Source: an uncultured Candidatus Saccharibacteria bacterium | GTDB taxonomy: Bacteria > Patescibacteriota > Minisyncoccia > Phycocordibacterales > UBA2100 | NCBI GenBank assembly: GCA_964648335.1 | Contig: CAZYLZ010000003.1 | Span: forward strand, 7,100 to 71,099 | Direction: 5' to 3' | DNA: 64,000 nt | Shown here: positions 15,790-49,423 of the stretch, in pieces | Layout of the letters: each line of letters starts with the position of its first letter | Position numbering within the stretch: the stretch's first letter is position 1 | The notes under the pieces: model-generated | Databases searched by the model: none | What the model was told of the DNA's origin: nothing | The model's input: only the letters and a program-made list of their open reading frames with translations | Translations under genes and position numbers: made by a program

Positions 15790-15794
15790 CCTCC

Positions 15795-18070: not shown

Positions 18071-18573
18071 AACAAAATCCGCTCATAGAACGAATGAAGG
18101 GTGCCCGGCTCGCATATCCCACGTTCCTGGTGAGTGATTTTCAGAACGCAAACCTGTTTAAAAACATGACGGCGGCCAACGACCTTTCAGGTTTTATAAA
18201 CGGCATTTTCAAGATAGCTATCGTTGTTGGCGCAATGCTCGCGGTATTGCGCCTGGTTTACGCAGGATTCCTCTATATGGGGACCGATATTTTCGATAAG
18301 AAAGGGGCAGCGAAAGAGGCCATCCAGAATGCACTGATCGGCCTTCTCCTTCTCGTCACGACATACATCTTACTCAACCAGATAAATCCCGACATCCTCA
18401 ACCTTAATATCACCCAGAACCTAAAGGCTCCCTCCACAGCAAACGACCCTTCGACACCCCAAAGCGCGGGTACCGCCTCATCTGCGGCGACCTACCAAGC
18501 ACCGAACATCATCACTGATCCAATAAGTGGTGAATCAAAATATTGCTCGCTGGACACTGGAATCTGTCAATAG
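18067..18573 (+). CDS. small membrane protein, VirB2/TrbC-like pilin candidate
   Basis: Two hydrophobic helices (IFKIAIVVGAMLAVLRLVYAGFL; LIGLLLLVTTYILL) separated by a short loop, about 168 aa; last gene of the block. Confidence 0.4.
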   Translation: MKQNPLIERMKGARLAYPTFLVSDFQNANLFKNMTAANDLSGFINGIFKIAIVVGAMLAVLRLVYAGFLYMGTDIFDKKGAAKEAIQNALIGLLLLVTTYILLNQINPDILNLNITQNLKAPSTANDPSTPQSAGTASSAATYQAPNIITDPISGESKYCSLDTGICQ

Positions 18574-20277: not shown

Positions 20278-20464
20278 AAACGCATCATACCTCTAATGGG
20301 ATAAAATTTCAATAGCTTGGCCATTAGTATGGATTCTCTGTCTATTTCGTCGGATAAGGGGTTGTCCTTTGAGTTATACACAGGTTACCCACACCTTTAA
20401 GCTCCATAGGGGTCAATAGGCGATTGAAAGCGATTAGGTATAATGGCTCCACCTTAGGGTGCGT
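20278..20464. promoter_or_regulatory. rpmH/dnaA divergent control region with a perfect TATAAT and a DnaA-box-like site
   Basis: TATAAT at about 20439-20444; TTATACACA (one mismatch to TTATCCACA) at about 20374-20382; intergenic between divergent rpmH and dnaA. Confidence 0.4.
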
Positions 20465-33645: not shown

Positions 33646-36057
33646 ATGACCGCTGCTACGAAGAAGGTGACAGGCAGTAAACGGCTTGTGCTCTTGGATG
33701 CGCATGCCATCATCCACCGCGCATACCACGCACTACCTGACTTCGCGTCATCGACCGGAGAGCCGACCGGCGCCCTCTATGGTCTCTCCTCGATACTCAT
33801 TCGTATCATCCAGGATCTCGAGCCCGACTACATTGCGGCATGCTTCGATCTTCCACAGCCTACGCATCGCCACGAAGCGTTTGAAGGATATAAAGGCACA
33901 CGCAAAGCGACCGACGACAATCTCGTGGCACAGCTCAAGCGCGCACGGGACATCTTTGCGGCATTCTCGATCCCAATCTACGAGGCCCCAGGATTCGAGG
34001 CCGACGATTGTCTGGGAACTATAGTGCACGAACTCAAGAAAAAACCGATTGACATCATCATTGCTTCGGGGGACATGGACACGCTCCAGCTAGTCGAGAA
34101 GAAGAAGGTGCAGGTGTATACACAGCGAAAAGGACCTAATGATATCGTGCTCTATGACGAGGATGCCGTGAACACCCGGTACGGATTCGGTCCGCTGCGC
34201 ATACCCGATTACAAAGGTCTCCGCGGAGATCCGTCGGACAACATTCCAGGCATAAAGGGGATTGGAGAAAAGACTGCAACTCAGCTCATAGTCGCTTTCG
34301 GTACCATCGAGGATATCTACAAGGCACTCAAGAAGGATGACGAAGCCTTGCTGAAAGCGAATATAAAAGGAAAGACTGCAGAGCTCATCAAGGCAGGCGA
34401 GGACGAAGCGGTCTTCTCTAAGATGATCGCGACAATCCGGACCGATGCACCTATCAAATTCGAGATCCCCAAAAAAACCTGGACGGACGGTCTCGATGCG
34501 CAGAAGATCCTTCGGATGTTCGACGAACTCGGGTTCAGGTCGCTTATGCCGCGTGCAAAGAGTCTGTTTGGTATAAAAGAGAAAGGGGAAGAGGTTACCG
34601 GTAACCTCCTTGCGACCGAGCCGGAAAAACCAAAAGAGGCAGTCGATGACCGAGAGCTCAGAGAGACAACTATCGCGCTGTGGCTCCTCAACTCCGACGT
34701 ATCGTACCCGGAACTCGACGACGTCCTGCGCTACGGAAAGACTGAGAGCTTTGCCACTGCAAAGGCGAAGATCTTCGCGGACCTTACTGCTACCGGGCGC
34801 CTGTTCGAGGTCTTCGAAACTATCGAGAAACCACTTATTCCGGTAGTAGAGGCAATGTGCAAGCGCGGCATACGTCTCGATACAAGGTATCTGGCAGACC
34901 TTTCTGCCGAGTACCATACGGTACTCGAGGGCATATCGGCTCGCATCTTCGGACACGTTGGTCACGAGTTCAATATCAGCTCACCAAAACAGCTGGGTGA
35001 CGTCTTGTTCGACGAGCTCCAGCTTGGAGGCCCTAAGCAAAAGAAGACCGCGGGCGGTCAGCGCTCTACTAAAGAAGAGGAGTTGTTGAAACTTGCAGAT
35101 TCGCATCCGATCATCGGCGAGATACTCAGTTTTCGCGAGCTGAGCAAGCTCGTCGGTACCTATGTCGACACCTTGCCGACTATGGTCGATTCTGATTCGC
35201 GTTTGCATACCCGCTTCATGCAGGCAGGCACCACCACCGGCCGCATGGCGTCTTTGGACCCTAATCTCCAGAATATTCCTATAAAGACCGAATACGGCCG
35301 ACGTATCCGCGAAGCATTCGTTGCCGACAAGGGGTACCGGCTCCTGGCTATCGACTACTCGCAGATCGAGCTTCGAATTGCAGCGGCCCTGTCGGGCGAT
35401 ACCAAGCTCATCAGTATCTTCAAAAGCGGGGGTGATGTTCATGCTGCCGTCGCTTCACAGGTGTTCAAGGTTCCAGCTGATGCTGTCGACCGCGAAATGC
35501 GCCGCCGGGCAAAGGTGATTAACTTTGGCATCATTTACGGCATGGGTGTGAATGCGCTGCGCCAGAATCTCGGGAGCGATGTCTCACGCGATGAGAGTGC
35601 GCAGTTTTTGGCAGATTACTTCGATAACTTCCAAGGACTCGCGGCATATTTGGAAAAGGTAAAGGCCGACGCTGCGCGTCTTGGCTACACCGAGACCCTC
35701 TTCGGACGTCGCCGCTCGTTTGCTGGCTTCCGGTCTCCATTGCCGTATGTCCGCGCACAAGCCGAGCGAATGGCGATAAATGCGCCGGTGCAGGGAACGG
35801 CAGCAGACGTGATAAAAAAAGCGACCGTCGATGCAGACCGGATGCTCTCGCGCGAAGGACAGCAAGAGAATGTGCGTCTCTTGCTCCAGGTTCATGACGA
35901 ACTCGTTTACGAAGTAAAGGCGGATCTCGTCGATTCTATGGCGCAAAAACTACGCCATGTCATGTGTGCGGTCGTTATGCCCGAGCAGTTGGGCGGAGTG
36001 CCGTTGGTGGTCGATGCAAAAACAGGGAAGAACTGGGGAGATATGGAAAAGATATGA
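33646..36057 (+). CDS. polA: DNA polymerase I (5'-3' exonuclease + polymerase domains)
   Basis: N-terminal FEN-like domain (LLDAHAIIHRAYHAL, GIKGIGEKTA); polymerase motifs A (DYSQIELR), B (RRRAKVINFGIIYGMG) and C (LLQVHDELVYE). Confidence 0.9.
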   Translation: MTAATKKVTGSKRLVLLDAHAIIHRAYHALPDFASSTGEPTGALYGLSSILIRIIQDLEPDYIAACFDLPQPTHRHEAFEGYKGTRKATDDNLVAQLKRARDIFAAFSIPIYEAPGFEADDCLGTIVHELKKKPIDIIIASGDMDTLQLVEKKKVQVYTQRKGPNDIVLYDEDAVNTRYGFGPLRIPDYKGLRGDPSDNIPGIKGIGEKTATQLIVAFGTIEDIYKALKKDDEALLKANIKGKTAELIKAGEDEAVFSKMIATIRTDAPIKFEIPKKTWTDGLDAQKILRMFDELGFRSLMPRAKSLFGIKEKGEEVTGNLLATEPEKPKEAVDDRELRETTIALWLLNSDVSYPELDDVLRYGKTESFATAKAKIFADLTATGRLFEVFETIEKPLIPVVEAMCKRGIRLDTRYLADLSAEYHTVLEGISARIFGHVGHEFNISSPKQLGDVLFDELQLGGPKQKKTAGGQRSTKEEELLKLADSHPIIGEILSFRELSKLVGTYVDTLPTMVDSDSRLHTRFMQAGTTTGRMASLDPNLQNIPIKTEYGRRIREAFVADKGYRLLAIDYSQIELRIAAALSGDTKLISIFKSGGDVHAAVASQVFKVPADAVDREMRRRAKVINFGIIYGMGVNALRQNLGSDVSRDESAQFLADYFDNFQGLAAYLEKVKADAARLGYTETLFGRRRSFAGFRSPLPYVRAQAERMAINAPVQGTAADVIKKATVDADRMLSREGQQENVRLLLQVHDELVYEVKADLVDSMAQKLRHVMCAVVMPEQLGGVPLVVDAKTGKNWGDMEKI

Positions 36058-36755
36058 TCTACCTCTATCTCGGGGAAGATACGATACTCGCGCGTAAGAA
36101 GCTACGCGAAGCGGTAGACAAGCTCGTGGCGCGCGTACCGGACGCCGATGTCCTCACGATCAATGACGAGAATTATGGTGACGAAAGCATCGACCTACTC
36201 CTACGGGAGCAGGGCCTTTTCTATAAGAAGCGCATACTCATACTCGACGGAGTATTCTCGACCGATGAGCCCGAAGCGTACCTCAAGGCACTGAAAGGGA
36301 TGGAGCAGTCCGAGCACGTGATCTTTGTGCTCGAGCGAAAACTGGACGCAAAAACAAGAAAACTTTTTGAAAAGCACGCGGCAAAGATAACCGAGTTCGA
36401 TACGGCAGAAAAGAAAGCGGCGCACTTTGACGGATTTGCGATCGCTGATCATCTCGGTTCCAAAAACCGCAACGAGCTCTGGCTTGCGTACCGTCGCGGC
36501 ATCCTGCGCGGCGAGCCAGCCGAGCGAATCTACGGGCTCTTATTCTGGGCTGCTAAGGCGCTCTACGCTGCGGCCATAAGCGAGACCCCGAAGGATGCCG
36601 GGCTTAAGGAATATCCGTTTACCAAAAGCAAGCGTGCGGCAAAGAACTTTACACAGAAAGAGCTCGCCAGGATCGTGGCAGACCTGTCGGAGCTGCCTGC
36701 GACCGCGAATATGGAAATGGAGTACGCCCTCGAGCGCTTCGTGCTTTCTATCTAA
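36054..36755 (+). CDS. holA: DNA polymerase III δ subunit-like (HolA family) candidate
   Basis: Start ATG overlaps the polA stop (ATGA); MIYLYLGEDTILARKKL N-terminus and size resemble δ-subunit N-terminal regions; weak similarity only. Confidence 0.5.
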   Translation: MIYLYLGEDTILARKKLREAVDKLVARVPDADVLTINDENYGDESIDLLLREQGLFYKKRILILDGVFSTDEPEAYLKALKGMEQSEHVIFVLERKLDAKTRKLFEKHAAKITEFDTAEKKAAHFDGFAIADHLGSKNRNELWLAYRRGILRGEPAERIYGLLFWAAKALYAAAISETPKDAGLKEYPFTKSKRAAKNFTQKELARIVADLSELPATANMEMEYALERFVLSI

Positions 36756-36781
36756 GGTAAGGCTGAAAGAAGTGAGGGTCC

Positions 36782-38119
36782 GTGTGCATAAGACCTTTTG
36801 ACGTACTACCTAACTCGCGTAGCATTGCAATAACTATGAAATCACACTCTCTTATGCGTCTATGCATCGTCTCCACGATTCTATTCCTTAGCTGTTCAGT
36901 ATTAGTCCTTATGATTCCGGTTCCTGCAAACGCAGTATCGACCGCTTGTATACGCTGTGGTCTCGGACCCAACGATCCTCCCTGTGGCCAGGTCTGTCCC
37001 GACAATACTAATCCGCAATGTGTCGGCGTCTGCACTCCTGGTGTCGGAGGCGACCCTCAGCAGTGCAAGGCAATCAAGTGTACTCAGGGAGATGGATTGG
37101 AAAGCAAGGCGGCGGCGGGCGGAGCAGAGCAGGTCATGAAGATGGCCCAGGATCTGTTAGGAAAGCTCATGCAAGGCGGCGGCGGGGGAGGTGGTGGTGA
37201 CACGCCACAAGCGCCGGTGCAGCAACCTACAACGCCGACGTTGGGCGACAGCTTGCTCAACAATCTCGGCGACCTTAGTAGCGGTTCGAGCTCGATTGGC
37301 GCCGCTTTGAGTAATATTACCGACTCACTGTTGAATGGCAGCACGGCCGAACTCCCGAAAAGCACGGTCACTACCACGTTTGCGACGTCAACGGCGGCGA
37401 CGACCGGTAGCGATGCGGCCGACGATACGGACGACACGACAAAGAAACCGTCCCTCGCGACCGGTTTCGAGAAGCCCAAGTCGGGCTTCGGCGCGTTTTT
37501 CGGTGGAGAGGGCGTGATAAACAGCATCTGCAAATCAAAACCCTGGGAGACGTCAGTGGTGTCGCAGATCTTTCCACCAGCATTCTTCGATTCACTTTGT
37601 TTCAAAATTGGTTACGTAGAGCCTCGACCGGCAGCCAAGGCACCCACTGCGGTCGCTCAGGTACGAGCAAAGCTCTCGTGTCCTGCCGGAGCACGACCTG
37701 GCGATTCTGTTGTAATTGCATGGCAATGCCCAGCAGGGTCGAGAAGTTCTGGTGTCGGATTTGACACGAAGGGACTTTCTCGCGGAGAAGTCGAGATTGC
37801 CGTTGGGTCTTCGACGCGCCGGTTCGATCTTGCGTGCGGACAAGGCGGGTCCGATTCATGTGTTGTCGAGGTGGTCCGTCCGGTGGTGCAAATTGTGGCA
37901 CATCCGGCGCGCGTACCGCTCGGAACTCGATCGAAAGTTTTCTGGACCTCGTCGGGCGTTGTGAGCTGTGAAATAATCGGCCCTAACTTTAAAGAGACAG
38001 GCGTGCAGGGCGCCGCGACGACTGGAACCATCCTCGAATCCACTCCATTCACGATCACGTGCAAAACCGCAGGAGGTATCACGGTCACGGAGTCTACGAC
38101 GATCGATATCGGCAAATAA
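36782..38119 (+). CDS. secreted Cys-/Gly-rich protein, family member 1 (conserved C-x-x-KPW...FFD-x-LC motif; C-terminal Ig-like domain)
   Basis: Signal/TM; Cys-rich N-terminus; Gly-rich helix LLGKLMQGGGGGGGG; motif ICKSKPWETSVVSQIFPPAFFDSLCFKIGYVEP; C-terminal domain paralogous to 38123..39853. Confidence 0.6.
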   Translation: MCIRPFDVLPNSRSIAITMKSHSLMRLCIVSTILFLSCSVLVLMIPVPANAVSTACIRCGLGPNDPPCGQVCPDNTNPQCVGVCTPGVGGDPQQCKAIKCTQGDGLESKAAAGGAEQVMKMAQDLLGKLMQGGGGGGGGDTPQAPVQQPTTPTLGDSLLNNLGDLSSGSSSIGAALSNITDSLLNGSTAELPKSTVTTTFATSTAATTGSDAADDTDDTTKKPSLATGFEKPKSGFGAFFGGEGVINSICKSKPWETSVVSQIFPPAFFDSLCFKIGYVEPRPAAKAPTAVAQVRAKLSCPAGARPGDSVVIAWQCPAGSRSSGVGFDTKGLSRGEVEIAVGSSTRRFDLACGQGGSDSCVVEVVRPVVQIVAHPARVPLGTRSKVFWTSSGVVSCEIIGPNFKETGVQGAATTGTILESTPFTITCKTAGGITVTESTTIDIGK

Positions 38120-38122
38120 GCC

Positions 38123-39853
38123 ATGGTACGTTTGCTCAAGTACGCCGGCACACTCACGCTAATCGTTTACATAACGGCACCAATCTCGACGTACGCGGCC
38201 TCGACGGGACAGGCGGTAACGCAGACGGTGGTCGCCACCGGCGTCGGTATCGGTGGCGCGATGCTCGTAAGCTCACTCATCCAATCACCGTACTCAAAAT
38301 GGCCGGTGACGCCGACGAACCCCGATTGTCTCTTCCGTTCTGTCGTTGTGACTCCGCCGGGAAACAGCGAGCCGCGCAATCCGAACCCTAACGGTAAAGA
38401 CCAATGTTTTAACTTTTGTTTCTACATCGACCCGGTCACGGGTCCACAGGCATGTGTAAATCCTAACTCGGGGGGAAGTGTCTTATCCAAATTTGGTGGA
38501 ATCGGCGGCGGTGCGGCGGCGAGTCCTCTGTCCAGTTTCGTAAACGGGCTCGCACAGGGGATAGGGAACGGGCTCGGGTCTGCGCTCATAGGTAAGCTTT
38601 TTCAGGGCGGATCGGGTAGTGGATCTTCTGGTGGGGTGGCAGGGCAAAACTGCACGCTCATGTTTACATCAAGCACTATCGCCGTCGTCCCCATTGGATG
38701 CGGCTGTCCCGACCCGGCAACGATTCCGGCCGGCGTCACCGTTTCTGGTTGCATGAGCGCAGTATCGCAACAACTTCTTGCGCAGCCGATTGCGCCTTAC
38801 GATTCTGCTACCACCACCGCGTCGATACAGATCGATCCTGGATTGGGTACGATCCCTGCGACTCAAAGTCCTGATGTGGTCACTACAGTCCGTGCCGAAG
38901 CAGAAGGGCAGGGTCCGGTAATAGGTAGCGCCACAAGGAGGACTGGTACTGCGACCTTGGCCCCGACAATGCTGCCATCTGCCGCCAAACCCGCACCATC
39001 ATTAATGGAGAAGCTCAAGCTCTCGGATGTCGCACAACAGACGTATACAATCGAAGAGCGAGATACCTCAAACCCAACACAAAGTACTCCGTCCTCTCTG
39101 GGGTCCTCGGTACCGGTTTTCGAGACCTCTCCTAAAAAAGACAGTGTTATGGGTTTTTCGGGGAGCGCTGCGACACAGCAGTCTTCGTCGGGGATCATAA
39201 ACACGACATGCTCCTCGCGCCCGTGGCAGTCGGGGCTCATGTCGCGACTCTTTGCTCCGGCTTTTTTCGATTCGCTCTGCGAGCGATATGGGTTTGTTCA
39301 ACGTCCTACCGCGCCTGCAGCAGCGTTTGACACGACGACGGCAGAGAGGAGAGTGCGGGCTCCGGCATCGGTACGCGACGACTCTCTTATAGTGACGCGG
39401 CCCGACAAAGGTATCTCGTGCATTCCCAGTGTCGTAATGGCAGAAAAACCTATTACGCTTTCGTGGTCATGTGGCGCCTCGAGCGTCGTTCAGACCAAGG
39501 GATTCACCGCGACAACCGGAGGGGCCAAGAGCATGACACCATCGTCTAATGCTACGTACGGCATCGTCTGTGCCGATGGGTTCGAGAGTTCGTGCGCGGT
39601 GCGCGTGATCCGTCCGACTGCACAGATAGCTGCTCGCCCCGCTTTGGTGCGCCTTGGTACGCGCACGACCATCTATTGGCGAGGTGTGGATATGCAGTCG
39701 TGTTCCGTTTCTGGTCCGGGGGTGCAAGCGTCTGGTCTTGAGGGTGCCATAATGACGCCACCAGTAAACGAGGTTACTACCTACTCGCTTGTCTGCGCAC
39801 GCCTCGACGGAGCGACGAGTACCGCGCATGTCTCGGTCGATATTGGAGGTTAG
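38123..39853 (+). CDS. secreted Cys-/Gly-rich protein, family member 2 (paralog of 36782..38119)
   Basis: Signal peptide MVRLLKYAGTLTLIVYITAPISTYAAS; Gly-rich LIGKLFQGGSGSGSSGG; motif CSSRPWQSGLMSRLFAPAFFDSLCERYGFVQRP; C-terminal ...SCSVSGPGVQASG...VSVDIGG matching member 1. Confidence 0.6.
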   Translation: MVRLLKYAGTLTLIVYITAPISTYAASTGQAVTQTVVATGVGIGGAMLVSSLIQSPYSKWPVTPTNPDCLFRSVVVTPPGNSEPRNPNPNGKDQCFNFCFYIDPVTGPQACVNPNSGGSVLSKFGGIGGGAAASPLSSFVNGLAQGIGNGLGSALIGKLFQGGSGSGSSGGVAGQNCTLMFTSSTIAVVPIGCGCPDPATIPAGVTVSGCMSAVSQQLLAQPIAPYDSATTTASIQIDPGLGTIPATQSPDVVTTVRAEAEGQGPVIGSATRRTGTATLAPTMLPSAAKPAPSLMEKLKLSDVAQQTYTIEERDTSNPTQSTPSSLGSSVPVFETSPKKDSVMGFSGSAATQQSSSGIINTTCSSRPWQSGLMSRLFAPAFFDSLCERYGFVQRPTAPAAAFDTTTAERRVRAPASVRDDSLIVTRPDKGISCIPSVVMAEKPITLSWSCGASSVVQTKGFTATTGGAKSMTPSSNATYGIVCADGFESSCAVRVIRPTAQIAARPALVRLGTRTTIYWRGVDMQSCSVSGPGVQASGLEGAIMTPPVNEVTTYSLVCARLDGATSTAHVSVDIGG

Positions 39854-40098
39854 GGTATAGGAAGAGCGTCCGAGCTCGTCGAGAAACAACCGATCACCAC
39901 TTGGTGCATCGTCTTTCCGCCGTCGACGACGAGGAGCTTCTTCTGCAACAGCGTGAGGCCGGCGTCGCACTCGTTCTTCATGTTGTCGAGCAGCATCTTG
40001 TCGCTAAATGCCGACCGCATCTGGAGCGCCCAAACAGTGACGAAGACTACAATGAAGGCGAGGATTATGACTATAGCTGTGGTCTCTCCTCGGGGCAT
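39850..40098 (-). CDS. small membrane hypothetical protein (82 aa)
   Basis: One TM helix (AIVIILAFIVVFVTVWAL); ORF only, low support. Confidence 0.3.
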   Translation of the reverse strand: MPRGETTAIVIILAFIVVFVTVWALQMRSAFSDKMLLDNMKNECDAGLTLLQKKLLVVDGGKTMHQVVIGCFSTSSDALPIP

Positions 40099-40261
40099 GT
40101 GGGTATGGTACCAAATTTACTACTAACGGATAGTATGGTTTTTTTTCGAAAATGAGGTGTCGCCTCGGGCTGCGAAGAAAATGGTCGTCACCCGTCGTTT
40201 CTTACTAAAAACGCGGTCGACCCCGCCTCGCAGCCAAGCTGCTCCTGCTCGGACCCATGTG

Positions 40262-40289
40262 AAAAAACAGTGCTCTAGCACTGTTTTTT
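40262..40289. terminator. bidirectional rho-independent terminator hairpin
   Basis: AAAAAA-CAGTGCT-ct-AGCACTG-TTTTTT perfect inverted repeat flanked by A- and T-runs, directly 3' of the minus-strand tRNA-Lys. Confidence 0.7.
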
Positions 40290-40297
40290 CTACTGGG

Positions 40298-40370
40298 TCC
40301 GCCCACCTGGACTCGAACCAGGGACCAACTCCTTAAAAGGGAGCTGCTCTACCAACTGAGCTATAGGCGG
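40298..40370 (-). tRNA. tRNA-Lys (anticodon UUU)
   Basis: Manual fold of the reverse complement: acceptor CCGCCTA/TGGGCGG, D arm GCTC-AGTTGGTA-GAGC, anticodon stem GCTCC/GGAGT with loop CTTTTAA, T arm CCTGG-TTCGAGT-CCAGG. Exact 5' end uncertain by 1 nt. Confidence 0.65.
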
Positions 40371-40431
40371 ATAGCTAATCGGCCGAACTATACCACTCAT
40401 CATGCGAATGCGCGAGGGGCGTGCCGGTCCT

Positions 40432-40800
40432 TTAGAAGGGAAAATCGATCCCAAAGGGCCCGGGGCCCGTGATGATAAGCGACACGGCCATTATTAGTGC
40501 CAGAGCGATGGTGCTCGACGGGTAGGAGGAAATGCGGGGGCGAGCCAGCCAGGCACAAAGAATGGCGGCAGCCACGAGTGCCGACGCCTGGGTGTAAACA
40601 CCGAGCACAACCGCAATAGCGACGAGTATTTCGAGAAGTGCCAAAATACGGTAGAGGGGTGTGCGAGCGGCCGAGATGCGCGACCATCCTGCGCTGCCGA
40701 TGATAAAGCCTATCGCCATGCGCATCATGAGGGCCGAGAAGGGTGCGAGAAAGAGTATCTGCGGGAAAAGGCTCGGTATTAGATTAAACATCGCAAGCAT
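40432..40800 (-). CDS. DoxX-family small membrane protein
   Basis: Four hydrophobic helices in 122 aa with a DoxX-like layout (MAIGFIIGSAGWSRI...LALLEILVAIAVVLG). Confidence 0.55.
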   Translation of the reverse strand: MLAMFNLIPSLFPQILFLAPFSALMMRMAIGFIIGSAGWSRISAARTPLYRILALLEILVAIAVVLGVYTQASALVAAAILCAWLARPRISSYPSSTIALALIMAVSLIITGPGPFGIDFPF

Positions 40801-40806
40801 TGTAGC

Positions 40807-41289
40807 ATGGCGAACATGGCTCGAATCGCGGCAGTTTTACATAATGTACGGAGCGCCCACAACGTGGGGTCGGTGTTTAGGACCGCCGATGGCGCTGGAG
40901 TCTCTCTGGTGGTGCTTTCGGGGTACACGCCGCGCCCTATTGATCGTTTTGGTCGTCCGCAGAAAGAGATAGCTAAGACAGCACTTGGAGCAGAAAAGAG
41001 CGTTCCATGGAAAGGGTACGCAACTATCAAGGCTGCTGTTGCTGCCCTTGAGGTCGAGGGATGGATCGTGGCGGCAGTTGAGCTCGATCTACGTGCACAA
41101 AAGTACACTGATGTCTTACCGGTGACTGACGACACCGCGTTTGTGTTTGGGAACGAGGTACGCGGACTCTCGGCAGATGCAAAGGCACTCTGTGCACGGC
41201 TTATCGAGATCCCAATGAAGGGTAGCAAAGAGTCCCTTAACGTTTCTGTGACCGCGGGTATTATTTTATTTGCTGCGCTGAACGAGTGA
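40807..41289 (+). CDS. SpoU/TrmH-family RNA 2'-O-methyltransferase
   Basis: SPOUT motifs: VLHNVRSAHNVGSVFRTADGAG, FVFGNEVRGLS, IPMKGSKESLNVSVTAGIILF. Confidence 0.75.
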   Translation: MANMARIAAVLHNVRSAHNVGSVFRTADGAGVSLVVLSGYTPRPIDRFGRPQKEIAKTALGAEKSVPWKGYATIKAAVAALEVEGWIVAAVELDLRAQKYTDVLPVTDDTAFVFGNEVRGLSADAKALCARLIEIPMKGSKESLNVSVTAGIILFAALNE

Positions 41290-41301
41290 TATCATGTTCG
41301 C

Positions 41302-42816
41302 ATGTATCGGTATGCAATCGGTCTCTCTGTTGGTGTTGTAACCGGGTTCAGTGTCTTTACCGTTCCATTTTTTGTACATGCAGCATCCGAAGAGGTCTGT
41401 ATCGAGGTGCGCAAGACTGGAGTAGAGTGTGACGCGTCGACTCCCGAGTCGACAATCGATAAGAGACTCCTCGGTGTCACGGGCGGCATTACTCCTACCC
41501 AAGCAGAAAACGCACTCGCTGCCTTTTTGTGCCCTGGATTCAAGCTCGGCTATGATCAATCTATCGATCCTGCGCAATTGAAAGAAAGCAGGGTCTACTT
41601 TACAGCAGGAACAGCGACGATGGACCCGAGTTTTGCAAAATGCACGGCTCAGTTTTTTACTGAGGCTAACGCCGCAGGGATCTACGGTCGCGTTTGTATC
41701 GCTGCAGCACTCAGATCTGTCGACCATCAAAGGGCATCGTGTCTCGATCGGTCAAATTCGCAGGCATGCGGCCGCAAGAATAATTGCACCTCGTTTGCTG
41801 GTTGTCCGCATGTGAACGGTATAGCCATCGACTTGCGCCAGAACGGAGGAGTTCCGACACCGAAGTTGATTGCATTTGCAGCATCCAAAGGACTCAAGCT
41901 TGGTTTCGTGCCTAATGACTCGTGGCATATGGAGCCAAACGGCGCCGGCTGTGCTCAATCTGGATTTACAAATCCGACCGTTGCAGGACTGAGCTCGGCC
42001 TCGGGAGGGATGGACCCACTCGGAGGAGGTGTACTTTCGGGAGGGGGTACTGGGGGACTGTTCGGAACCGGATCGAGTTTCTTGAGCGGAATAGCGCGCG
42101 GGGTCGGGACGGCTGTCGGTATGCAGATAGTGCAAAGCCTTTTCCAGCCAAATTCCAATGTCGGTCTTTCACAAGGCGTGGCAGTCTCATCTCCCTTGCC
42201 CACTCCGGTGCAGAGTCAACAGTCGACATACCTCGACGGTACGTACCCGATCTTTGGGCAAAGCAAGCTCAGCAGCGACCTTGCAGCGCTCTTGCGGAGT
42301 GTCACCACATCACCGACGACGGTCATCGTAAGTGGTGCCGTCGTCCCAGCACCAAAGCCTACAGAAAAGACGATCGCACTCTCAGGCATCACCGAAGGGG
42401 GAGTTCGCGTGGTACCGACCGTGCCACGTCCGCAGGATGTTGTGGTGCAGCCGATCATGGCAACCGGCATGCAATCATTCGACACAACAGACCCTCGACA
42501 CTCATCCAATCTTGGTATCTCAATCGAGTCATCCTCGACGGCGACTTCGGCGCCGCAGGCAATTGTCACGACACGAGAGGTCGAGGACCAGCGACTGGCG
42601 TACGCCACTATCGATCAGGTTGCCGAGCGGCAGCGCAATCTCGGAAGCGGCGCGTTTTATGGCGACGCGACCGATGACGGTAGGAGCAAAACATTCTTGG
42701 GGCGCCTGTGTGTTACGAGGCCGTGGGCCACAGGATTGTTCTCATCGATACTGAATCCGCAGCCGTTCGACAACTACTGCATCATGCACGGATACGTAAA
42801 TGAGTCGGTCGAGTAG
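41302..42816 (+). CDS. secreted protein with M15 (VanY/D-Ala-D-Ala carboxypeptidase-like) zinc peptidase motifs and the family C-terminal motif
   Basis: Signal peptide; CPHVNGIAIDL (H-x-x-G-x-A-x-D) and DSWHMEP (x-W-H-x-E) match M15 zinc ligand blocks; Gly-rich stretch; C-terminal CVTRPWATGLFSSILNPQPFDNYCIMHGYV shared with 36782 and 38123 proteins. Confidence 0.6.
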   Translation: MYRYAIGLSVGVVTGFSVFTVPFFVHAASEEVCIEVRKTGVECDASTPESTIDKRLLGVTGGITPTQAENALAAFLCPGFKLGYDQSIDPAQLKESRVYFTAGTATMDPSFAKCTAQFFTEANAAGIYGRVCIAAALRSVDHQRASCLDRSNSQACGRKNNCTSFAGCPHVNGIAIDLRQNGGVPTPKLIAFAASKGLKLGFVPNDSWHMEPNGAGCAQSGFTNPTVAGLSSASGGMDPLGGGVLSGGGTGGLFGTGSSFLSGIARGVGTAVGMQIVQSLFQPNSNVGLSQGVAVSSPLPTPVQSQQSTYLDGTYPIFGQSKLSSDLAALLRSVTTSPTTVIVSGAVVPAPKPTEKTIALSGITEGGVRVVPTVPRPQDVVVQPIMATGMQSFDTTDPRHSSNLGISIESSSTATSAPQAIVTTREVEDQRLAYATIDQVAERQRNLGSGAFYGDATDDGRSKTFLGRLCVTRPWATGLFSSILNPQPFDNYCIMHGYVNESVE

Positions 42817-42838
42817 ATCGACGCATGGGCGAGGCTTG

Positions 42839-43885
42839 TCAGTACGACCAGACACTTACCGTCCTTCCTTGTGCATCGAGAAGCCGTAGTACATCGTGTC
42901 GATCTTGCCAGAGTCCACGCTCGGATCCCAAGTACAGCCGCCATGTGCCGTCGGTAAAATCGGCGCGCCAGCGATGTTGCTCAACGCATCCATTGTACGA
43001 GATAGCTTGCCGCACAAAAGACGCGCAGGCGGGCGATACAGAGGTAGGGAGTTCGCCGATGAAATACGTGCAGCTCGGCATCGACGCAAGCAATTCGAAG
43101 CATGATTCGCCGTACCGTGCGAGGTTGTCGGGGGTGGGAACGAGTTCGGTATCCGGCGCAGGACACGAGCGAGAAAGGTCGGGAGCGAACTCTTGGAACT
43201 GCGTCAGGTATCCGCTACAGACGTTCTCGCGAAAGCTCGTCCCGACCGGCGAGGTGCCGCTCGTTACGTATATCGATTCGCCCGGGCCGAGTATCACATC
43301 AGAGAGGGGAGCGACCTCGCCGACTCTAAGGGCTACCGAGCCTCTTGGTAGATATGCACGCACTCCGGTGATCGCACTCTGAAGCGACCATCCCGACAAA
43401 GATACGTTCTTTGAATTGCCGTATGGTGACGTAAGCTGCAAATATTCTTGATGCGGATCAGACTCGCGCGGGGCACTAGCATTTGATATGGAAATTGCTC
43501 CCTTAAAGGGGGATATCTCGCCAAAAGTTTTGGCCTCGTTCACTTTTTTTGCAAGGTCTGCGTACTCTTGGTCGAGATCCGAATACCGGTCCTCGATACC
43601 GTACAGAGTATCGGCCTCTGACGAACCTGCAGAAATTGAAGACCCTGTGCCGCCGAGAGCGGCCTCATCGAGCGATGAGGGGAGCGGGATACCGGGCATC
43701 TTCGGTGGCGGGAAGTACAAAAAAGATGTGCCGGTCGCTATCTGGCCTCCAAGTAAAACGCCAAACGGATTTGCAAACTGGCCCGACTTGCTGAGTATCT
43801 GCTTACCTGCGCCGCCGGCGATCCATGCGACCACCAGTACGATCACGATCACAAAAAAAAGAATCAAGAGGACACGCTGTAGCAT
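42839..43885 (-). CDS. N-terminally membrane-anchored hypothetical protein (possible lamin-tail-like C-terminal domain)
   Basis: TM helix LLILFFVIVIVLVVAWIA; C-terminal ...WRLYLGSERGLWQDRHDVLRLLDAQGRTVSVWSY loosely LTD-like; weak. Confidence 0.45.
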   Translation of the reverse strand: MLQRVLLILFFVIVIVLVVAWIAGGAGKQILSKSGQFANPFGVLLGGQIATGTSFLYFPPPKMPGIPLPSSLDEAALGGTGSSISAGSSEADTLYGIEDRYSDLDQEYADLAKKVNEAKTFGEISPFKGAISISNASAPRESDPHQEYLQLTSPYGNSKNVSLSGWSLQSAITGVRAYLPRGSVALRVGEVAPLSDVILGPGESIYVTSGTSPVGTSFRENVCSGYLTQFQEFAPDLSRSCPAPDTELVPTPDNLARYGESCFELLASMPSCTYFIGELPTSVSPACASFVRQAISYNGCVEQHRWRADFTDGTWRLYLGSERGLWQDRHDVLRLLDAQGRTVSVWSY

Positions 43886-43909
43886 GTTCTCGACAGTATA
43901 CCATCGTGC

Positions 43910-45211
43910 TTACGCCAGCGCTGGCGATGGTTCGGTCGCCGCTCCTGGATTCTTATCGAAAAGTTTGCGCGCGATTTCTTCACGTAAGACATCGGCGTCG
44001 CTCCAGGGTATCTTTGTTCCTCCAGGGCCCATCATGGTGGTCTCGCTGCCTTTTCCACTTACAAGCACTGCTGTTCCAGGTTCAGCAAGCTCCAAGGCTC
44101 GTCTGATCGCGAGCCGTCGGTCGATGATGATCTCGGGGCGGGTGTGCTTTATCCCGAGTGCAATTGAGGCCGTTATTGCAAACGGATCTTCGTCGTACGG
44201 ATCTTCGTTGGTGAGGATGATGTGATCGCACAGTTCGTCGGCGATCTTTCCCATCTCGGGTCGTTTCCAGACGTCGCGGCCGCCGCCAGCGGCGCCCAAG
44301 ACACACACCTTCTTGCGCCCTTTGTACGAGGTGTAGAGCGCTCGCAGAGAGTCTGGCGTATGTGCGTAGTCGACGACTGCAAGAAATGGCTGCGACTTAT
44401 CGATCTGTATCTCTTCGGTTCGACCCGGTATGACGCGGAGCTTCGCGATGCCGGCGGCAATAATGGACGGCTCGATGCCGAAGGCGCGTGCCATCGTTGC
44501 TGCCGCGAGCGCGTTCATCATATTGTGTTCACCTGCGACATGCACGTGCATCGTGGTGTTCTCGAGCACGAACGTGCTGCCACGCTCATCGCTCGCATAC
44601 GGACGCACCTCTTCTTTGGTATAGGGGAGAGCGAGGTCGACGGGGAGGGTAAGGAAGCGAACACTCTCCTTATCTTCGGTATTAGCTGCCAGGATGCGCG
44701 GTCGCTTTTTCGAACGTACCAGGGCGTGTCCTATCGAGAGTTTCGCTTGTACATATGCGTCGTACGATCCGTGCGATTCGATATGCTCGGGCGAGAGGTT
44801 CGTGAATATGAGCCCGTTGAGCTGAATGAATCGATGACGGTGCTGCAGAGTGCCTTCGGACGTCATCTCGATGAACGCGATGTTGCATTTTGCCTTGACC
44901 GCGTCGGCCAAGAACTGTTGCATGAAGAATCGTCCCGGCATGCTCATCTTGCGCCGGTTCTGCTCGCTTTTGCCAGCGACCTTGAAACGGATGGTGCTCG
45001 TGCTTGCAGTCGTGTAGCCCGCCGTCTCGAAGATGACGTTCAAGAACTCGATGGTACTCGACTTGCCTTTGGTCCCGGTGACGCCAATAACGAGAATACG
45101 CTGGGAGGGAAAGTTGTTTATGAGTGCTCCTAAGAAGGCGTTCCCAAAGTGGTATGCCGAAAGCACGGGTCTCGGTATCAGCTGCCGAACCATTGATTTG
45201 AGTGCATGCAT
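43910..45211 (-). CDS. Mur ligase family protein (MurE/MurF-like)
   Basis: ATP-binding P-loop VIGVTGTKGKSST; Mur ligase middle-domain length; exact paralog (MurE, MurF or MurT) not resolvable by eye. Confidence 0.65.
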   Translation of the reverse strand: MHALKSMVRQLIPRPVLSAYHFGNAFLGALINNFPSQRILVIGVTGTKGKSSTIEFLNVIFETAGYTTASTSTIRFKVAGKSEQNRRKMSMPGRFFMQQFLADAVKAKCNIAFIEMTSEGTLQHRHRFIQLNGLIFTNLSPEHIESHGSYDAYVQAKLSIGHALVRSKKRPRILAANTEDKESVRFLTLPVDLALPYTKEEVRPYASDERGSTFVLENTTMHVHVAGEHNMMNALAAATMARAFGIEPSIIAAGIAKLRVIPGRTEEIQIDKSQPFLAVVDYAHTPDSLRALYTSYKGRKKVCVLGAAGGGRDVWKRPEMGKIADELCDHIILTNEDPYDEDPFAITASIALGIKHTRPEIIIDRRLAIRRALELAEPGTAVLVSGKGSETTMMGPGGTKIPWSDADVLREEIARKLFDKNPGAATEPSPALA

Positions 45212-45218
45212 ATCGCTG

Positions 45219-45794
45219 TTATCGTGATCCGCCGAGAATTTTCAACGCTTCGCGCAGTCGTGTGCTGCTTCCTTGGTGTTCGCGAGGGACGAGCTTGAGG
45301 GCGTCGCGAGCCTCGGAGCGTGAATAACCTAGGGCTTCGAGTGCCTCGACAGCGTCGGTGTCGCCGGTGTGTATTGCCTTTTCGCCTTCGATCGCGAGGC
45401 CGACCTTGTCGCGAAGCTCGATGATGATCTTTTCGGCGGTCTTTTTTCCAATACCGGACATCTTAGTAAGGTACGCGAGATTACCTTCGGCGATCGCACT
45501 TTTAAGAGAGCTCGGTGTTGCGACCGAAAGAATGCCGAGTGCCGATTTAGGTCCTATCCCGGTAACGGTAAGGAGTAGCTCGAAGAGGGAGAGCTCGGTC
45601 CGGGTCGCGAATCCGTAGAGATCGAGTGCCGTTTCGCGCACCGCCATGTGTGTCCAAAGCGATGTCCGCGTACCTACCGAAAGCCCACCTAACGTATCGA
45701 CGGCGCCAAAGACCTTGTACCCGACCCCGCCTGTGCTCACGATCGCATGGGTATCGCCTATATAGAGAACGGTACCCTCAAGATGACCTATCAT
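45219..45794 (-). CDS. ruvA: Holliday junction DNA helicase subunit RuvA
   Basis: MIGHLEGTV...GVGYKV (OB domain), tandem helix-hairpin-helix LLTVTGIGPKSALGIL / LTKMSGIGKKTAEKII, C-terminal domain III. The long upstream extension in the track is not RuvA-like and overlaps rpsT antisense. Confidence 0.8.
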   Translation of the reverse strand: MIGHLEGTVLYIGDTHAIVSTGGVGYKVFGAVDTLGGLSVGTRTSLWTHMAVRETALDLYGFATRTELSLFELLLTVTGIGPKSALGILSVATPSSLKSAIAEGNLAYLTKMSGIGKKTAEKIIIELRDKVGLAIEGEKAIHTGDTDAVEALEALGYSRSEARDALKLVPREHQGSSTRLREALKILGGSR

Positions 45795-45893
45795 GCTGCA
45801 ATCATACAATAGAGAGGGCAGAAGTTCATGGGTGTGGGGGCAATAACACAGATTAGTTGCTTTTTTGGGGTTTTTAGGTACTATAGCCCCCAT

Positions 45894-46160
45894 ATGGCTA
45901 TCACATCGTCTGCAAAGAAGGCACAGCGCGCATCTCTTAAGAAGCGCGTCTTCAACGTGCGCCGCAAAGACACCATGCGCGACGCCTTCAAGGACTTCTC
46001 TAAGCTTGTCGCAGCCAAGAAGGTTAAGGAGGCAGGTGCTATGGTCTCGACGGTCTACCAAGCGGTAGACAAGGCTGCAAAGCGCGGAATCATCAAGGCA
46101 AACGCCGCATCGCGCCGGAAAGCTCGCGTTGCACGCATGCTCGCTGGAATCTCGAAATAA
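45894..46160 (+). CDS. rpsT: 30S ribosomal protein S20
   Basis: MAITSSAKKAQRASLKKRVFNVRRK... classic S20 N-terminus; 88 aa from the internal Met. Confidence 0.85.
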   Translation: MAITSSAKKAQRASLKKRVFNVRRKDTMRDAFKDFSKLVAAKKVKEAGAMVSTVYQAVDKAAKRGIIKANAASRRKARVARMLAGISK

Positions 46161-46269
46161 CGGCTCAAAACAATCACAAAACCGCGCTTTCTGGCGCGGT
46201 TTTGTGTCGGGGTATCGGTTTTTTGGCTTCGGTCGTTTGTTATTGTAGACGCCTCTGCTTGCCGCCATT

Positions 46270-46515
46270 AGGGTGGCCGCGGCTCGCGCCGTCGCGCTGC
46301 GCCCTGCGACCATCAGGGTCGCGAGCACATTTTTGTGGCCACCGTAATTTGCTACTGCAAATTCGGCCGGCCCCGGCTCGGCACGCCTGCCTCCGCCGAG
46401 CACAAATCTGCGCTCACTCGATTTGTGTGGCTACCCATAATTTTCTGGTGAAAATTTGGTCAGCCCCGCCTCGGCAGGCCTTTGGCTAGCACAAACTCCA
46501 TGTATTCGTTTGTGC
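46270..46515. repeat. three tandem degenerate two-hairpin repeat units (about 70-90 nt), last one abutting the tRNA-Arg 3' end
   Basis: Each unit: inverted repeat GCTCGNG...CNCGAGC then AGCACAAA-loop-TTTGTG hairpin (CACAAATctgcgctcactcgATTTGTG; CACAAACtccatgtattcGTTTGTG); spacers carry perfect small palindromes AATTTGCtactGCAAATT and AATTTTCtggtGAAAATT. Confidence 0.5.
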
Positions 46516-46584: not shown

Positions 46585-46693
46585 GTCGGTCGTACTGTAG
46601 CATGTTTTTCGAGAATATCTATCTTTCTGGGACAGGCTGGTGCAATCCACTGTGCAAAGCGTTGGAAAAGGTGGGGGAGTGCCGCATGATATG

Positions 46694-49423
46694 GCTATGC
46701 ATCGATCTCGCGGCTCTGCGTCGTTGTTAGTAAATCTCTTCTCATTCGCCATAGTCGCTGGATTGTCACTCGGTGCCAGCGCCTATAGCCACGGCAAGGT
46801 CGCGCTCGGCATCGACGTGCCACAACGCTCGCAGATGACTGCAGCGGCAGATGCGGCATCGTCGCGCGATGGCGACAATGGTCGAGGGGCCAGTGGAGCA
46901 CCAATCCCGAGCGGTGAAGAGATAGGAAAAGCTAGCGATTGTCCTGCAGGAACGACGCAAAACGTCTCGGCTGCCACCGGCGGAGATAATCCTGGTGAGG
47001 TCGCGATAGTGCAAGCGCCCGGCGCCGATCTTAACTCGTGCGTTGTTTCGTGGGATTCGCCCGATGGGAAAAAAATATTTGTCGCCGGAGCTTCGTCGTA
47101 CGCGGGAGCTATCAGTGCCTGTGGTGGCGCTGCGGCAACCACATGTGTTACACAAAAGATGGAAAGTCAGTTTCCAAACGGCGCCGCAAACGGAACTGCC
47201 GAAACGAAGGTAAAAGAGCTCGCTGGCCTTAAGGGATATGCTGCGCCGTCGGATGTTTTGAATGATGCGTTTGGTGTAGGTGGCTCCGAGGCGAAGGCTG
47301 CAGTGGAGAAAGAAGTCGAGAACAATCTTAAAGCGCTCGAGGCATATACCAATAAGACGATTAGCGCGACCGACGACAAAGACAAAGAAAGGCTTGGGTT
47401 AGGCACGGCCAACCTCGAGACGCTTAAAGAGTCGGTCGGCCGCATCCCAGCGGGGGACAGTCCGTTCAAAACCGACCTGCAGAATGAGCGATTAAATACA
47501 ACACCTGCGGGCGAGACTAAAACCAATCCGATAGGTAATACGTTCGGATCTCATCGTGCTGATGAACAGACTTCGATGGAAGCTCTCGATCGTTACAATT
47601 CAAAAAAGGAACTCGCGGGTACGTTCGGTGCTAAAGAGGCCGCTCTACAGATTGCGCGCAACGCATACGATGCCGGATTGCGAAACGATCTCACTAACGA
47701 CGAGATCTCTGCGCTTGCGAGGGATAAGGCAAAGGCAGAAAGCGAATATGAAGCCGCACTTAAGGCTAAGAATGAGCTAGATGCATCGAATAAAGAAAAT
47801 GCGTTGGCTAAGGCAGGTCCGTGCACGGCAGGTTGGCCGGCATGTGCTATTCGCGAAAACATCGTGAACCCCATACGGCAATTTATTGGGTGGGCACCTA
47901 TCCAAGAAACGCCCGGTGCTGGCGGCGTAAAAACTGAAACCGCAGTTGCGGGCGCTGCGACAACAAATACGGTTCCAACTACGCGCGAAACTGTCTCGAA
48001 TTCCGTAAACCCTGCCGATGCCTTTAAGGGCAACGAAAAACTTATCGCTGATTCCGATGAGCGACTCCATGCGGCGGTCGAAGGATATACGAAGGATGTA
48101 CCCACGGTGAGTGATCGCGACCACGATAAGGCATATGTCGAGAGTTGGGAGGCGCGCAAGGCGTATATCAACAACCTCGAAAAAACGCTTGCCGACCCCA
48201 AGACTCAGGAAGCGGGCAGCGCAGAAATTGGAAGAAAGCTCGATGCCGCACGAGCAGATTTAAAAGAGTTCGAAGGTCAGTTCAAGAAGGGGGCAGGGAG
48301 CCCTGGGGGCGCAGAAGAACTCCAGGCAATGAAGGATAGTCTGGGTGAACAAGCAGCTGCTGATAAAAAATCAGCAGACGATGCAGAGGCAGCGCGAAAG
48401 CGCGCCGAGCAAGAGGCTGCAGACCGCAGTCGCGTCGGGGGTGGAAATGGTGGCGGAGGGAGCGGAGGCGGGGGTGCAAATAAAAGTATCGCAGATGTGT
48501 TGAGTGGACTCATGGGTGGCGGGCAGAATTCGGCAGAGTGCGAGGCCGCAAAGTCGCAGTGCAGCGCAAATAGAAGTACGGCTGCGTGCCAAAAGGTTGC
48601 GCAGTGCCAGTCGCAAAGCAGCAACCCACTCTCGCAGCTCGGACAGATGCTCGGTAAAGCATTGGGCGGCGGTGGAAGTAGCGGGAGTGCCGCACAACCC
48701 GGTAGTGTTGCAGCGAATGCGGCGTGCAATGCGTATCCAGGAACGACGCTTACGAACGGGCAGTGTGCGTGCCAGCAGAGCGGCTACTCGTTCTACCAGG
48801 CAGGGACGACGCTTAACGGCGCGCCCGTACCGACATCGGGGTGTTACGCACCATCGGTTGCAGCTGGAACCAATCCTGGCGGGCAGACGCCTGTTGCCAC
48901 CATCTCGTGCGCAACAAATGCCGCAGATGTCGGTATGACGATTCCAGTCTCGTGGTCGTGCCAGAATTCGGTCACAGCGCGCGTCGACGGATTTACTCCC
49001 GCAGCACAAGAATTGGCACAGCTCTCGGGCTCGAGCCAAGTTACTGTCGCCAAACCAGCAAGCGGATCAAGCGTCGACTACACGGTCACGTGCATTAATC
49101 AGGGACAGACCGACGTAAAAAAGTGCACGGTCGCGATAGGTCAGCCTGGTCTTGCAATTGTTGCCATTCCCGACCGGCCCGAGGTAGGTAAGACGTCAAT
49201 CATCGGATGGTACTCGACCGGCATGAGCTCGTGCAGTATCAAGGGAGGAAGGATGAAGGGAGGTACCGGATCTCCAATCGACGAATTTACCAAAGAGGGG
49301 ACGAGCGGGTCAATAACCTTGCCACCCATAGAAGACGGCGATGTTTTCGAGGCAGGGCTTGCCTGCGTAAGTACGAGCGGACAGACAACCACCAAAGGAA
49401 TCGAGATAAGGCAGAAACAATAG
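46694..49423 (+). CDS. large secreted coiled-coil/Gly-rich protein with C-terminal tandem Ig-like domains (family-related)
   Basis: Signal/TM (LLVNLFSFAIVAGLSLGASA); long Lys/Glu/Ala coiled-coil region; Gly-rich (GGGNGGGGSGGGG; LGKALGGGGSSGS); C-terminal ...TIPVSWSCQNS...VTCINQG... β-sandwich repeats resembling C-termini of the 36782, 38123 and 50452 proteins. Start could be 46640. Confidence 0.6.
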   Translation, partial: AMHRSRGSASLLVNLFSFAIVAGLSLGASAYSHGKVALGIDVPQRSQMTAAADAASSRDGDNGRGASGAPIPSGEEIGKASDCPAGTTQNVSAATGGDNPGEVAIVQAPGADLNSCVVSWDSPDGKKIFVAGASSYAGAISACGGAAATTCVTQKMESQFPNGAANGTAETKVKELAGLKGYAAPSDVLNDAFGVGGSEAKAAVEKEVENNLKALEAYTNKTISATDDKDKERLGLGTANLETLKESVGRIPAGDSPFKTDLQNERLNTTPAGETKTNPIGNTFGSHRADEQTSMEALDRYNSKKELAGTFGAKEAALQIARNAYDAGLRNDLTNDEISALARDKAKAESEYEAALKAKNELDASNKENALAKAGPCTAGWPACAIRENIVNPIRQFIGWAPIQETPGAGGVKTETAVAGAATTNTVPTTRETVSNSVNPADAFKGNEKLIADSDERLHAAVEGYTKDVPTVSDRDHDKAYVESWEARKAYINNLEKTLADPKTQEAGSAEIGRKLDAARADLKEFEGQFKKGAGSPGGAEELQAMKDSLGEQAAADKKSADDAEAARKRAEQEAADRSRVGGGNGGGGSGGGGANKSIADVLSGLMGGGQNSAECEAAKSQCSANRSTAACQKVAQCQSQSSNPLSQLGQMLGKALGGGGSSGSAAQPGSVAANAACNAYPGTTLTNGQCACQQSGYSFYQAGTTLNGAPVPTSGCYAPSVAAGTNPGGQTPVATISCATNAADVGMTIPVSWSCQNSVTARVDGFTPAAQELAQLSGSSQVTVAKPASGSSVDYTVTCINQGQTDVKKCTVAIGQPGLAIVAIPDRPEVGKTSIIGWYSTGMSSCSIKGGRMKGGTGSPIDEFTKEGTSGSITLPPIEDGDVFEAGLACVSTSGQTTTKGIEIRQKQ

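Follow-up and report, generated by a model that had tools for sequence, protein, structure and literature searches.

The window analysed here, a 64,000-nucleotide stretch of contig CAZYLZ010000003.1 (positions 7,100 to 71,099) from an uncultured Candidatus Saccharibacteria bacterium, contains at 41302..42816 on the forward strand an open reading frame (ORF) that starts with ATG and encodes a protein of 504 amino acids. All coordinates are window positions, residues are numbered in the full-length protein, and every feature of this protein lies on the forward strand. The original prediction described the product as a secreted M15 (VanY-like) zinc peptidase fused to the C-terminal motif of a surface-protein family. 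Translation of the window confirmed the ORF and the strings from which that description was built: CPHVNGIAID at residues 168–177 (41803-41832), DSWHMEP at residues 206–212 (41917-41937), and a Gly-rich run at residues 229–258. The C-terminal motif, given there as C-x-x-RPW...FFD...C, is also present, as CVTRPW (residues 470–475), FD (489–490) and a second Cys (493), and the protein ends at residue 504, 11 residues past C493; the wording of the motif needs one correction, because P-F-D and not F-F-D stands here.

Residues 28–226 (41383..41979) form an M15/LAS zinc-peptidase domain, with a conserved catalytic core at residues ~106–223 (41617-41970). A direct search with hidden Markov models (HMMs) of the Peptidase_M15 families, proposed with the original prediction, does not find this domain: the query protein has no M15 match in Pfam or NCBIfam even at E<=1 and no match in PHROGs at E<=0.1, and nothing was obtained from the PDB sequences either by phmmer with the peptidase domain or by a 3-sequence profile. 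M15 emerges solely from the profile of the family and from the fold prediction. A word-indexed homologue search gave two matches only, a 90%-identical orthologue (P0001) and an N-domain relative of 40% identity (P0002), and a search for related loci with one alignment returned the genome of P0002 as its sole result. Using a profile of residues 28–226 in a HMMER scan over 1.84 billion representatives, we found 85 proteins, 30 of which score at E<=1e-10; these metagenomic relatives are clusters at 50% identity. The named members of the 85-protein set belong to Ca. Kaiserbacteria and Patescibacteria, and one member of the clade (MCR4325976.1) carries the annotation 'D-alanyl-D-alanine carboxypeptidase family protein'. 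A literature search on peptidase M15 in Patescibacteria returned nothing, and the assemblies index contains no entry for the exact window protein.

Compared with the PDB sequences, the family profile matches LysB4 (6akv, 6.6e-10), VanY (5hnm, 1.3e-9) and Ply500 (2vo9, 4.8e-9), followed by LdcB/DacB, VanXY and ChiX, with hedgehog N-domains at marginal E-values. Individually, 32 of 42 relatives match Pfam VanY (PF02557), the best at 7.8e-12, and three of them exceed its gathering threshold of 25 bits, namely P0029 (31.5 bits), P0038 (30.4) and P0078 (28). No Pfam match was found for the members of the query's own sub-clade (P0002, P0003, P0007 and P0009). Because neither the query nor its closest relatives match VanY, membership in the superfamily rests on transitive profile evidence together with the fold.

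An AlphaFold2 model of residues 28–226, built on the family alignment, has a mean predicted local distance difference test score (pLDDT) of 88.1 and a predicted template-modelling score (pTM) of 0.79. When the PDB was searched with this model using Foldseek, ranks 1–22 were all M15/LAS structures, with Ply500 first (E 1.4e-4, probability 1.00, template-modelling score (TM) 0.51, normalised to the target length) and LysB4 also leading, and the top matches among the viral models of BFVD were M15 endolysins. The top PDB matches have a probability of 1.00. The endolysin domains of LysB4 and Ply500, which are L-alanoyl-D-glutamate endopeptidases, are the best match by profile and by fold, respectively, but share only 23–25% identity with the window protein over ~130 aligned columns. 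Unlike these endolysins, the window protein is cellular and predicted to be Sec-exported, has an N-terminal helical extension of ~78 residues, and carries a Cys-rich insert (ASCLDRSNSQACGRKNNCTSFAGC) that separates the Arg block of the domain from its His block. Ten Cys residues lie in the peptidase domain and two in the C-terminal module (C470 and C493), with none elsewhere in the mature protein. This even count fits an exported, disulfide-stabilised protein, in which up to five disulfides are predicted to stabilise the catalytic domain.

The predicted active site is made up of three short blocks. The first, R138-S-V-D-H-Q143 (41713..41730), is an 'R-S/T-x-x-x-Q' block in which the Arg and the Gln are near-invariant and R138 is the predicted oxyanion-stabilising Arg. 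The second, C168-P-H170-V-N-G-I-A-I-D177, corresponds to (S/C)xHxxGxAxD and provides predicted zinc ligands 1 and 2 (H170 and D177), and the third, D206-S-W-H209-M-E-P, provides the predicted general base (D206) and zinc ligand 3 (H209). Alignment to the family HMM with hmmalign places LysB4 residues R50, H80, D87, D129 and H132 onto R138, H170, D177, D206 and H209, respectively. The window protein and LysB4/Ply500 have in common the H/D/H zinc triad (H-x6-D...H in M15/LAS peptidases), the acid three residues ahead of the last His, the oxyanion Arg and the xHxxGxAxD block. In the crystal structure of LysB4, zinc is held by H80, D87 and H132, while D129 puts the nucleophilic water in place and R50 serves to stabilise the oxyanion; the D129A and R50Q variants are inactive (PMC6354061).

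The reading of H-x-x-G-x-A-x-D as a zinc-ligand block in the original prediction agrees with this alignment. Its second block, W-H-x-E, includes the predicted ligand H209, equivalent to LysB4 H132, but the acid lies upstream of the His, and the block is to be read not as W-H-x-E but as D206-x-x-H209, as in D129/H132 of LysB4. Eight residues (R138, Q143, H170, G173, A175, D177, D206 and H209) are invariant or >=90% conserved in the 42-domain alignment in which conservation was scored. Across all six reading frames of the window, the composite pattern R[ST]xxxQ...HxxGxAxD...[DE]xxH is matched once, and in 200 shuffles it is never matched. Within the SxHxxGxAxD signature, the match at H170..D177 is exact for xHxxGxAxD and the Ser position is occupied by Cys168, a position that is C or S in the relatives.

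The ratio of nonsynonymous to synonymous substitution rates (dN/dS), computed against the orthologue P0001 on contig L075, has values of 0.04 for the M15 domain, 0.085 for the module at the C-terminus, 0.14 for the linker that joins them and 0.55 for the fast-evolving signal peptide. The gene is under purifying selection, and the low values of the enzyme domain and of the module indicate that both ends of the protein are functional. A single sequence that has no direct database match could owe its motifs to chance, the ORF then being no relative of M15 or no real gene. This is barely conceivable in view of the 200 shuffles without the motif triad, the 85 homologues, the agreement of profile and fold on M15, and the orthologue with its conserved synteny and strong purifying selection. 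A catalytically dead domain, that is, a hedgehog-like or peptidoglycan-binding remnant acting only as the head of an adhesin, would explain the failure of the curated HMMs, the Cys-rich insert and the replacement of the motif Ser by Cys, and would suit a protein whose remaining parts belong to a non-enzymatic surface-protein family. We consider it very improbable, since the five catalytic positions are kept here and are near-invariant in 42 divergent relatives, dN/dS is 0.04, and dead homologues normally lose their ligands.

In the mechanism that we propose, Zn2+ would be held by H170, D177 and H209, D206 would activate the zinc-bound water for attack on a peptide bond of a peptidoglycan stem peptide, and R138 would stabilise the tetrahedral intermediate. 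Three L-Ala-D-Glu endopeptidases, LysB4 (D129), Ply500 (D130) and ChiX (D120), use Asp as the catalytic acid, whereas that of VanX is Glu181 (PMC6354061). The Asp of DxxH is near-invariant in the present family, and since the window protein shares it with LysB4, Ply500 and ChiX and does not have the Glu of VanX, it is most likely an endopeptidase of the L-alanyl-D-glutamate type. VanY and LdcB likewise have Glu in their ExxH block.

The Asp tilts the prediction in this direction without settling it. A DD- or LD-carboxypeptidase of the VanY/LdcB kind, which would trim terminal D-Ala or other end residues of stem peptides, is a possible activity of clearly lower probability: relatives match Pfam VanY, one of them bears the annotation of a D-Ala-D-Ala carboxypeptidase family protein, and both the profile search and the fold search have VanY and LdcB structures among their top matches, but the best sequence match and the best fold match are both endopeptidases. 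Specificity within M15 is, moreover, not reliably readable from sequence. The VanY/VanXY/LdcB/DacB group (M15B carboxypeptidases) has the same fold and metal-binding block as the window protein; the query, however, has no PF02557 match at E<=1, no van operon context and no glycopeptide-resistance role.

The protein begins with a predicted Sec signal peptide (residues 1–27, MYRYAIGLSVGVVTGFSVFTVPFFVHA / ASEE; 41302..41382), which has a basic N-terminus, a hydrophobic stretch at residues 6–24 (Kyte-Doolittle 1.83) and a cleavage-like site, V-H-A|A, and lacks a lipobox Cys. A hydrophobic segment is found at the N-terminus of most full-length members of the M15 family. From these features, the signal peptide would be cleaved and the protein exported.

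The peptidase domain is followed by the Gly-rich run (residues 229–258) and a Gly-zipper-like amphipathic helix, SSFLSGIARGVGTAVGMQIVQSLFQP (residues 258–283). Together they occupy 41986..42150 and align with the same element of a paralogue at 38123-39853, and similar Gly-run/helix elements are present in the proteins encoded at 36782-38119 and 46640-49423 and in typical members of the surface-protein family. The only library match of the query is a sub-threshold one, of DUF5665 to the Gly-zipper helix (E 0.0015; score 19 bits, cut-off 27). Residues 284–449 (42151..42648) are a low-complexity linker of ~165 residues, rich in S, T, V, P and Q, and pLDDT is <50 in the portion of it that was modelled (model segment 402–458). 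Promoter and terminator scans around the gene gave a background level only.

The C-terminal module occupies residues 450–504 and the stop codon (42649..42816) and reads AFYG...C470-V-T-R-P-W...P-F-D...C493...G-Y-V-N-E-S-V-E. In an alignment of 34 modules, ten positions do not vary (F, G, C, P, W, P, F, D, C and G), and the window protein has them all, as F452, G454, C470, P474, W475, P486, F489, D490, C493 and G497; the fusion of an M15 domain to the motif of neighbouring surface proteins, as originally predicted, is thereby confirmed. A pattern back-translated from the motif has three matches in the window (37529-37615, 39209-39295 and 42709-42795), compared with 0.00 expected, and matches 69 metagenomic stretches, many of which come from 0.1-um groundwater fractions. 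A search with a 4-sequence motif alignment gave no candidates and one with a 34-sequence module alignment gave 6 fragments only; the named fragments are hypothetical proteins of Ca. Pacebacteria and Ca. Kaiserbacteria. For residues 402–504, an AlphaFold2 model made from a shallow alignment is confident at residues 461–501 only (pLDDT 75–82), a stretch that forms three short helices. In this model, the three helices probably bring C470 and C493 together into a small, disulfide-bridged unit.

Two further genes of the module family are located 1.4–4.5 kb upstream of the peptidase gene, on the same strand. The first (36782..38119, 445 amino acids) encodes a signal peptide, a Cys-rich N-module, the Gly run and helix, the motif CKSKPW...FFD..C..GYV at 37529-37615, and ~150 residues of immunoglobulin (Ig)-like C-terminal domains; the second (38123..39853, 576 amino acids) has the motif CSSRPW...FFD..C..GFV at 39209-39295, followed by ~180 residues of Ig-like domains. 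Throughout the family the module is ~55–85 residues long, and the 73 proteins recovered from metagenomes share a larger conserved form of it, GDI...GAT..AG.RD...NTEVAGFYG......C.SRPWA.NFLS.IIPP.FFD.LC.WRGYQVG. Typical members (420–750 amino acids) begin with a signal peptide, after which come Cys-rich modules in the N-terminal part, the Gly-run/helix element, GCxxYYxTSD...DPCAxY and the module; the ~110–137 residues beyond the CxxRPW motif comprise a Pro-rich spacer and, at the C-terminus, an Ig-like domain.

With this Parcubacteria family the window protein has in common the signal peptide, the Gly-run/amphipathic-helix element, the two-Cys module and a conserved gene block. It has, however, no Ig-like domain after the motif and no Cys-rich N-modules with 'GCxxYYxTSD...DPCAxY', and its module is terminal, whereas typical family members lack M15. 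The window protein is a chimera and not a typical member of the family. The further proposal of a family whose role is to deliver or anchor hydrolases of the cell wall finds no support: an M15 domain is present in none of the 73 typical proteins, and no significant Pfam domain, and no enzyme domain, was found in the five members scanned (both paralogues from the window and three typical proteins). The fusion of M15 and the module was found in three sequences only, the window protein, P0001 and P0007.

About half of the M15 relatives differ from the window protein in the tail that they carry. A distinct tail, QTFTSxDL...amphipathic helix...YLRPFGG...E, is present in 43 of the 86 other family sequences (P0001–P0086); it consists of QTFTSxDL, 15–25 residues, an amphipathic helix, 'YL(R/K)PFGG' and 6–12 residues mostly ending in Glu, and has no Pfam match. 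We considered whether it might be a diverged CxxRPW module, and this was ruled out by an hhalign probability of 0.1%. The Patescibacteria proteins with this tail, such as MCR4325976.1, are ~400–520 amino acids long and have a homologous catalytic domain with the same invariant residues, an N-terminal signal and a long linker of low complexity. They differ from the query in the unrelated tail, in the lack of the Cys-rich insert and N-terminal extension of the query's sub-clade, and in being detectable by Pfam. The window protein, P0001, P0002 and P0007 all terminate in -(S/G)-V-E, and this recurring -V-E C-terminus, which M15 proteins with the other tail also have, might belong to a signal for recognition or processing.

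Taken together, these results make it highly probable that the gene encodes a Sec-exported, highly divergent LAS/M15 zinc peptidase (VanY/Ply500/LysB4/LdcB fold) with a family-specific tail module, in a bacterium of the Parcubacteria-type candidate phyla radiation (CPR). Several observations weigh against this conclusion. The query reaches no curated threshold, and the phmmer and 3-sequence profile searches of the PDB were also empty; the canonical Ser of SxH is replaced by Cys168; the combination of M15 and module is known from just three sequences; the model of the module is only moderately confident, over ~40 residues; and the structural similarity to PDB entries found by Foldseek is moderate (TM 0.4–0.5, rmsd 4.8–6 A), because of the N-terminal extension and the Cys-rich insert.

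The peptidase gene is situated in a conserved Parcubacteria block (33646-46403 in the window) with the order PolA, holA-like, module-family gene(s), a small membrane protein (reverse strand), SpoU methylase, LTD (reverse), Mur ligase (reverse) and RuvA (reverse). This block is common to >15 metagenomic contigs, each with one or two CxxRPW-module genes (block loci L008, L016, L022, L024, L025, L033, L038, L041, L043, L045, L050, L059, L060, L065 and L070). In those contigs SpoU directly abuts the LTD gene, without an M15 gene; an M15 gene lies between the two only in the window, in L075 (P0001) and in L005 (P0007). Thus, the M15 gene was inserted in a lineage-specific manner, and its site lies a few kilobases downstream from the paralogues with the same module. 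The possibility that M15 genes generally stand beside module-family genes was ruled out, as no M15 ORF is present in the 69 metagenomic loci. P0002, which has the other tail, is found in an unrelated genomic context. An insertion at this site would fit a tail swap through local recombination, and an old one, given that identity between the module of the window protein and those of its neighbouring paralogues is only ~24–30%.

Divergence around the insertion is uneven. The LTD protein (42839-43885, reverse strand) is 97% identical between the window and L075, compared with 90% for the adjacent M15 protein and 86% for the SpoU fragment. The Mur ligase gene is the second gene downstream, ~1.1 kb from the peptidase gene and on the opposite strand, and its presence indicates a cell that makes peptidoglycan, a point in favour of the peptidase reading. 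The RuvA ORF (45219-46403, reverse strand) starts with GTG and encodes 394 amino acids, with RuvA domains in residues 204–390 only; as the RuvA ORFs of related loci have ~200 amino acids, its N-terminal half is probably an over-extended call and not a fusion.

Beyond RuvA, 46640-49423 on the forward strand encodes a large secreted protein of 927 amino acids with a coiled-coil-like middle rich in Ala, Glu and Lys, Gly runs accompanied by short amphipathic helices, and Ig-like domains at the C-terminus that are similar to those found in the module family. It has no CxxRPW motif and no Pfam match, and its homologues adjoin RuvA in L045 and L065. Further downstream, 50452-61845 (forward strand) is a single ORF of 3797 amino acids, a giant protein of a type common in CPR genomes.

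At the other side of the window, a VirB4/TraC-like ATPase (TraG P-loop, 4.1e-25) is encoded at 13870-15789 on the forward strand, ~26 kb from the peptidase gene. Several of the ORFs around it (5948-18573) are large and without Pfam matches, and one has a Big_6 Ig domain; the ATPase region and its flanks are probably a type IV secretion system (T4SS) cluster of the Patescibacteria type. DnaA, at 20459-21811, suggests that the replication origin region is nearby. A T4SS-associated hydrolase (VirB1-like) was considered as an identity for the window protein and was rejected, since this distance and the SpoU-LTD housekeeping context lend it no support; in other Patescibacteria, T4SS-linked roles of this kind are known (PMC12102498).

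The wall on which the enzyme acts may be that of the cell itself or that of another bacterium. In the latter case, the peptidase would be an offensive hydrolase with which an episymbiotic CPR cell breaches or remodels the wall of its host, the C-terminal module setting the enzyme at the contact surface. All cultivated Patescibacteria are episymbionts, and in S. epibionticum peptidase and lysozyme homologues beside virB4 are essential for epibiotic growth (PMC12102498). The predicted export and long flexible linker would suit such a role, and the closest relatives of solved structure are endolysins of phages, enzymes that lyse cells from outside the membrane. We nevertheless regard an offensive role as doubtful: the gene stands in a housekeeping block (SpoU, LTD, Mur ligase and RuvA) and in no secretion or pilus cluster, neither a host nor a lytic lifestyle has support, and autolysins of the same fold, for example of the CwlK type, are ordinary housekeeping enzymes.

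The functional analogy that we favour is CwlK of Bacillus subtilis (named in PMC6354061), the window protein presumably being, in the same way, an exported, cell-encoded M15 enzyme acting on its own wall. In the arrangement that we envisage for it, the Gly-rich run and amphipathic helix and the ~165-residue flexible linker would join the catalytic domain to the two-Cys helical module, the module would dock the enzyme to an envelope partner of the surface-protein family, and the docked peptidase would have a local action, on the wall of its own cell or at the cell surface. CwlK itself is small, with a single domain and neither linker nor module. A further difference from the phage enzymes LysB4 and Ply500 is that the window protein has no SH3-type wall-binding domain, and has instead its long linker and CxxRPW module.

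The enzyme class, and the logic of a catalytic domain combined with a targeting module, are already well known, and to this extent the finding is useful but will not surprise a specialist. The new elements are an M15 sub-clade that Pfam does not see and that has a Cys-rich insert, and the chimera in which it is joined to an uncharacterised surface module of Parcubacteria. A protein left 'hypothetical' by every curated model now has a concrete predicted function with named active-site residues, and a Patescibacteria-wide M15 clade has been delimited that comprises, at 50% identity, at least 85 clusters. Episymbiotic CPR bacteria may use cell-wall hydrolases to divide, to assemble surface machines and to interact with the host, but few such enzymes have been characterised.

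The chimera also provides a handle on an opaque, syntenic Parcubacteria surface family, in that an assayable enzyme class is joined to the signature module of that family. More speculatively, the two-Cys 'FYG-CxxRPW-FFD-C-GY' module could be a Parcubacteria-specific docking or anchoring domain for varied exported cargo (adhesin-type proteins that are Cys-rich or Ig-like and, in the present case, a wall peptidase) on a common envelope structure. We think this unlikely on present evidence, but if true it would amount to a new surface-display system of ultra-small bacteria, and the chimera would be its first link to an identifiable enzymatic cargo.

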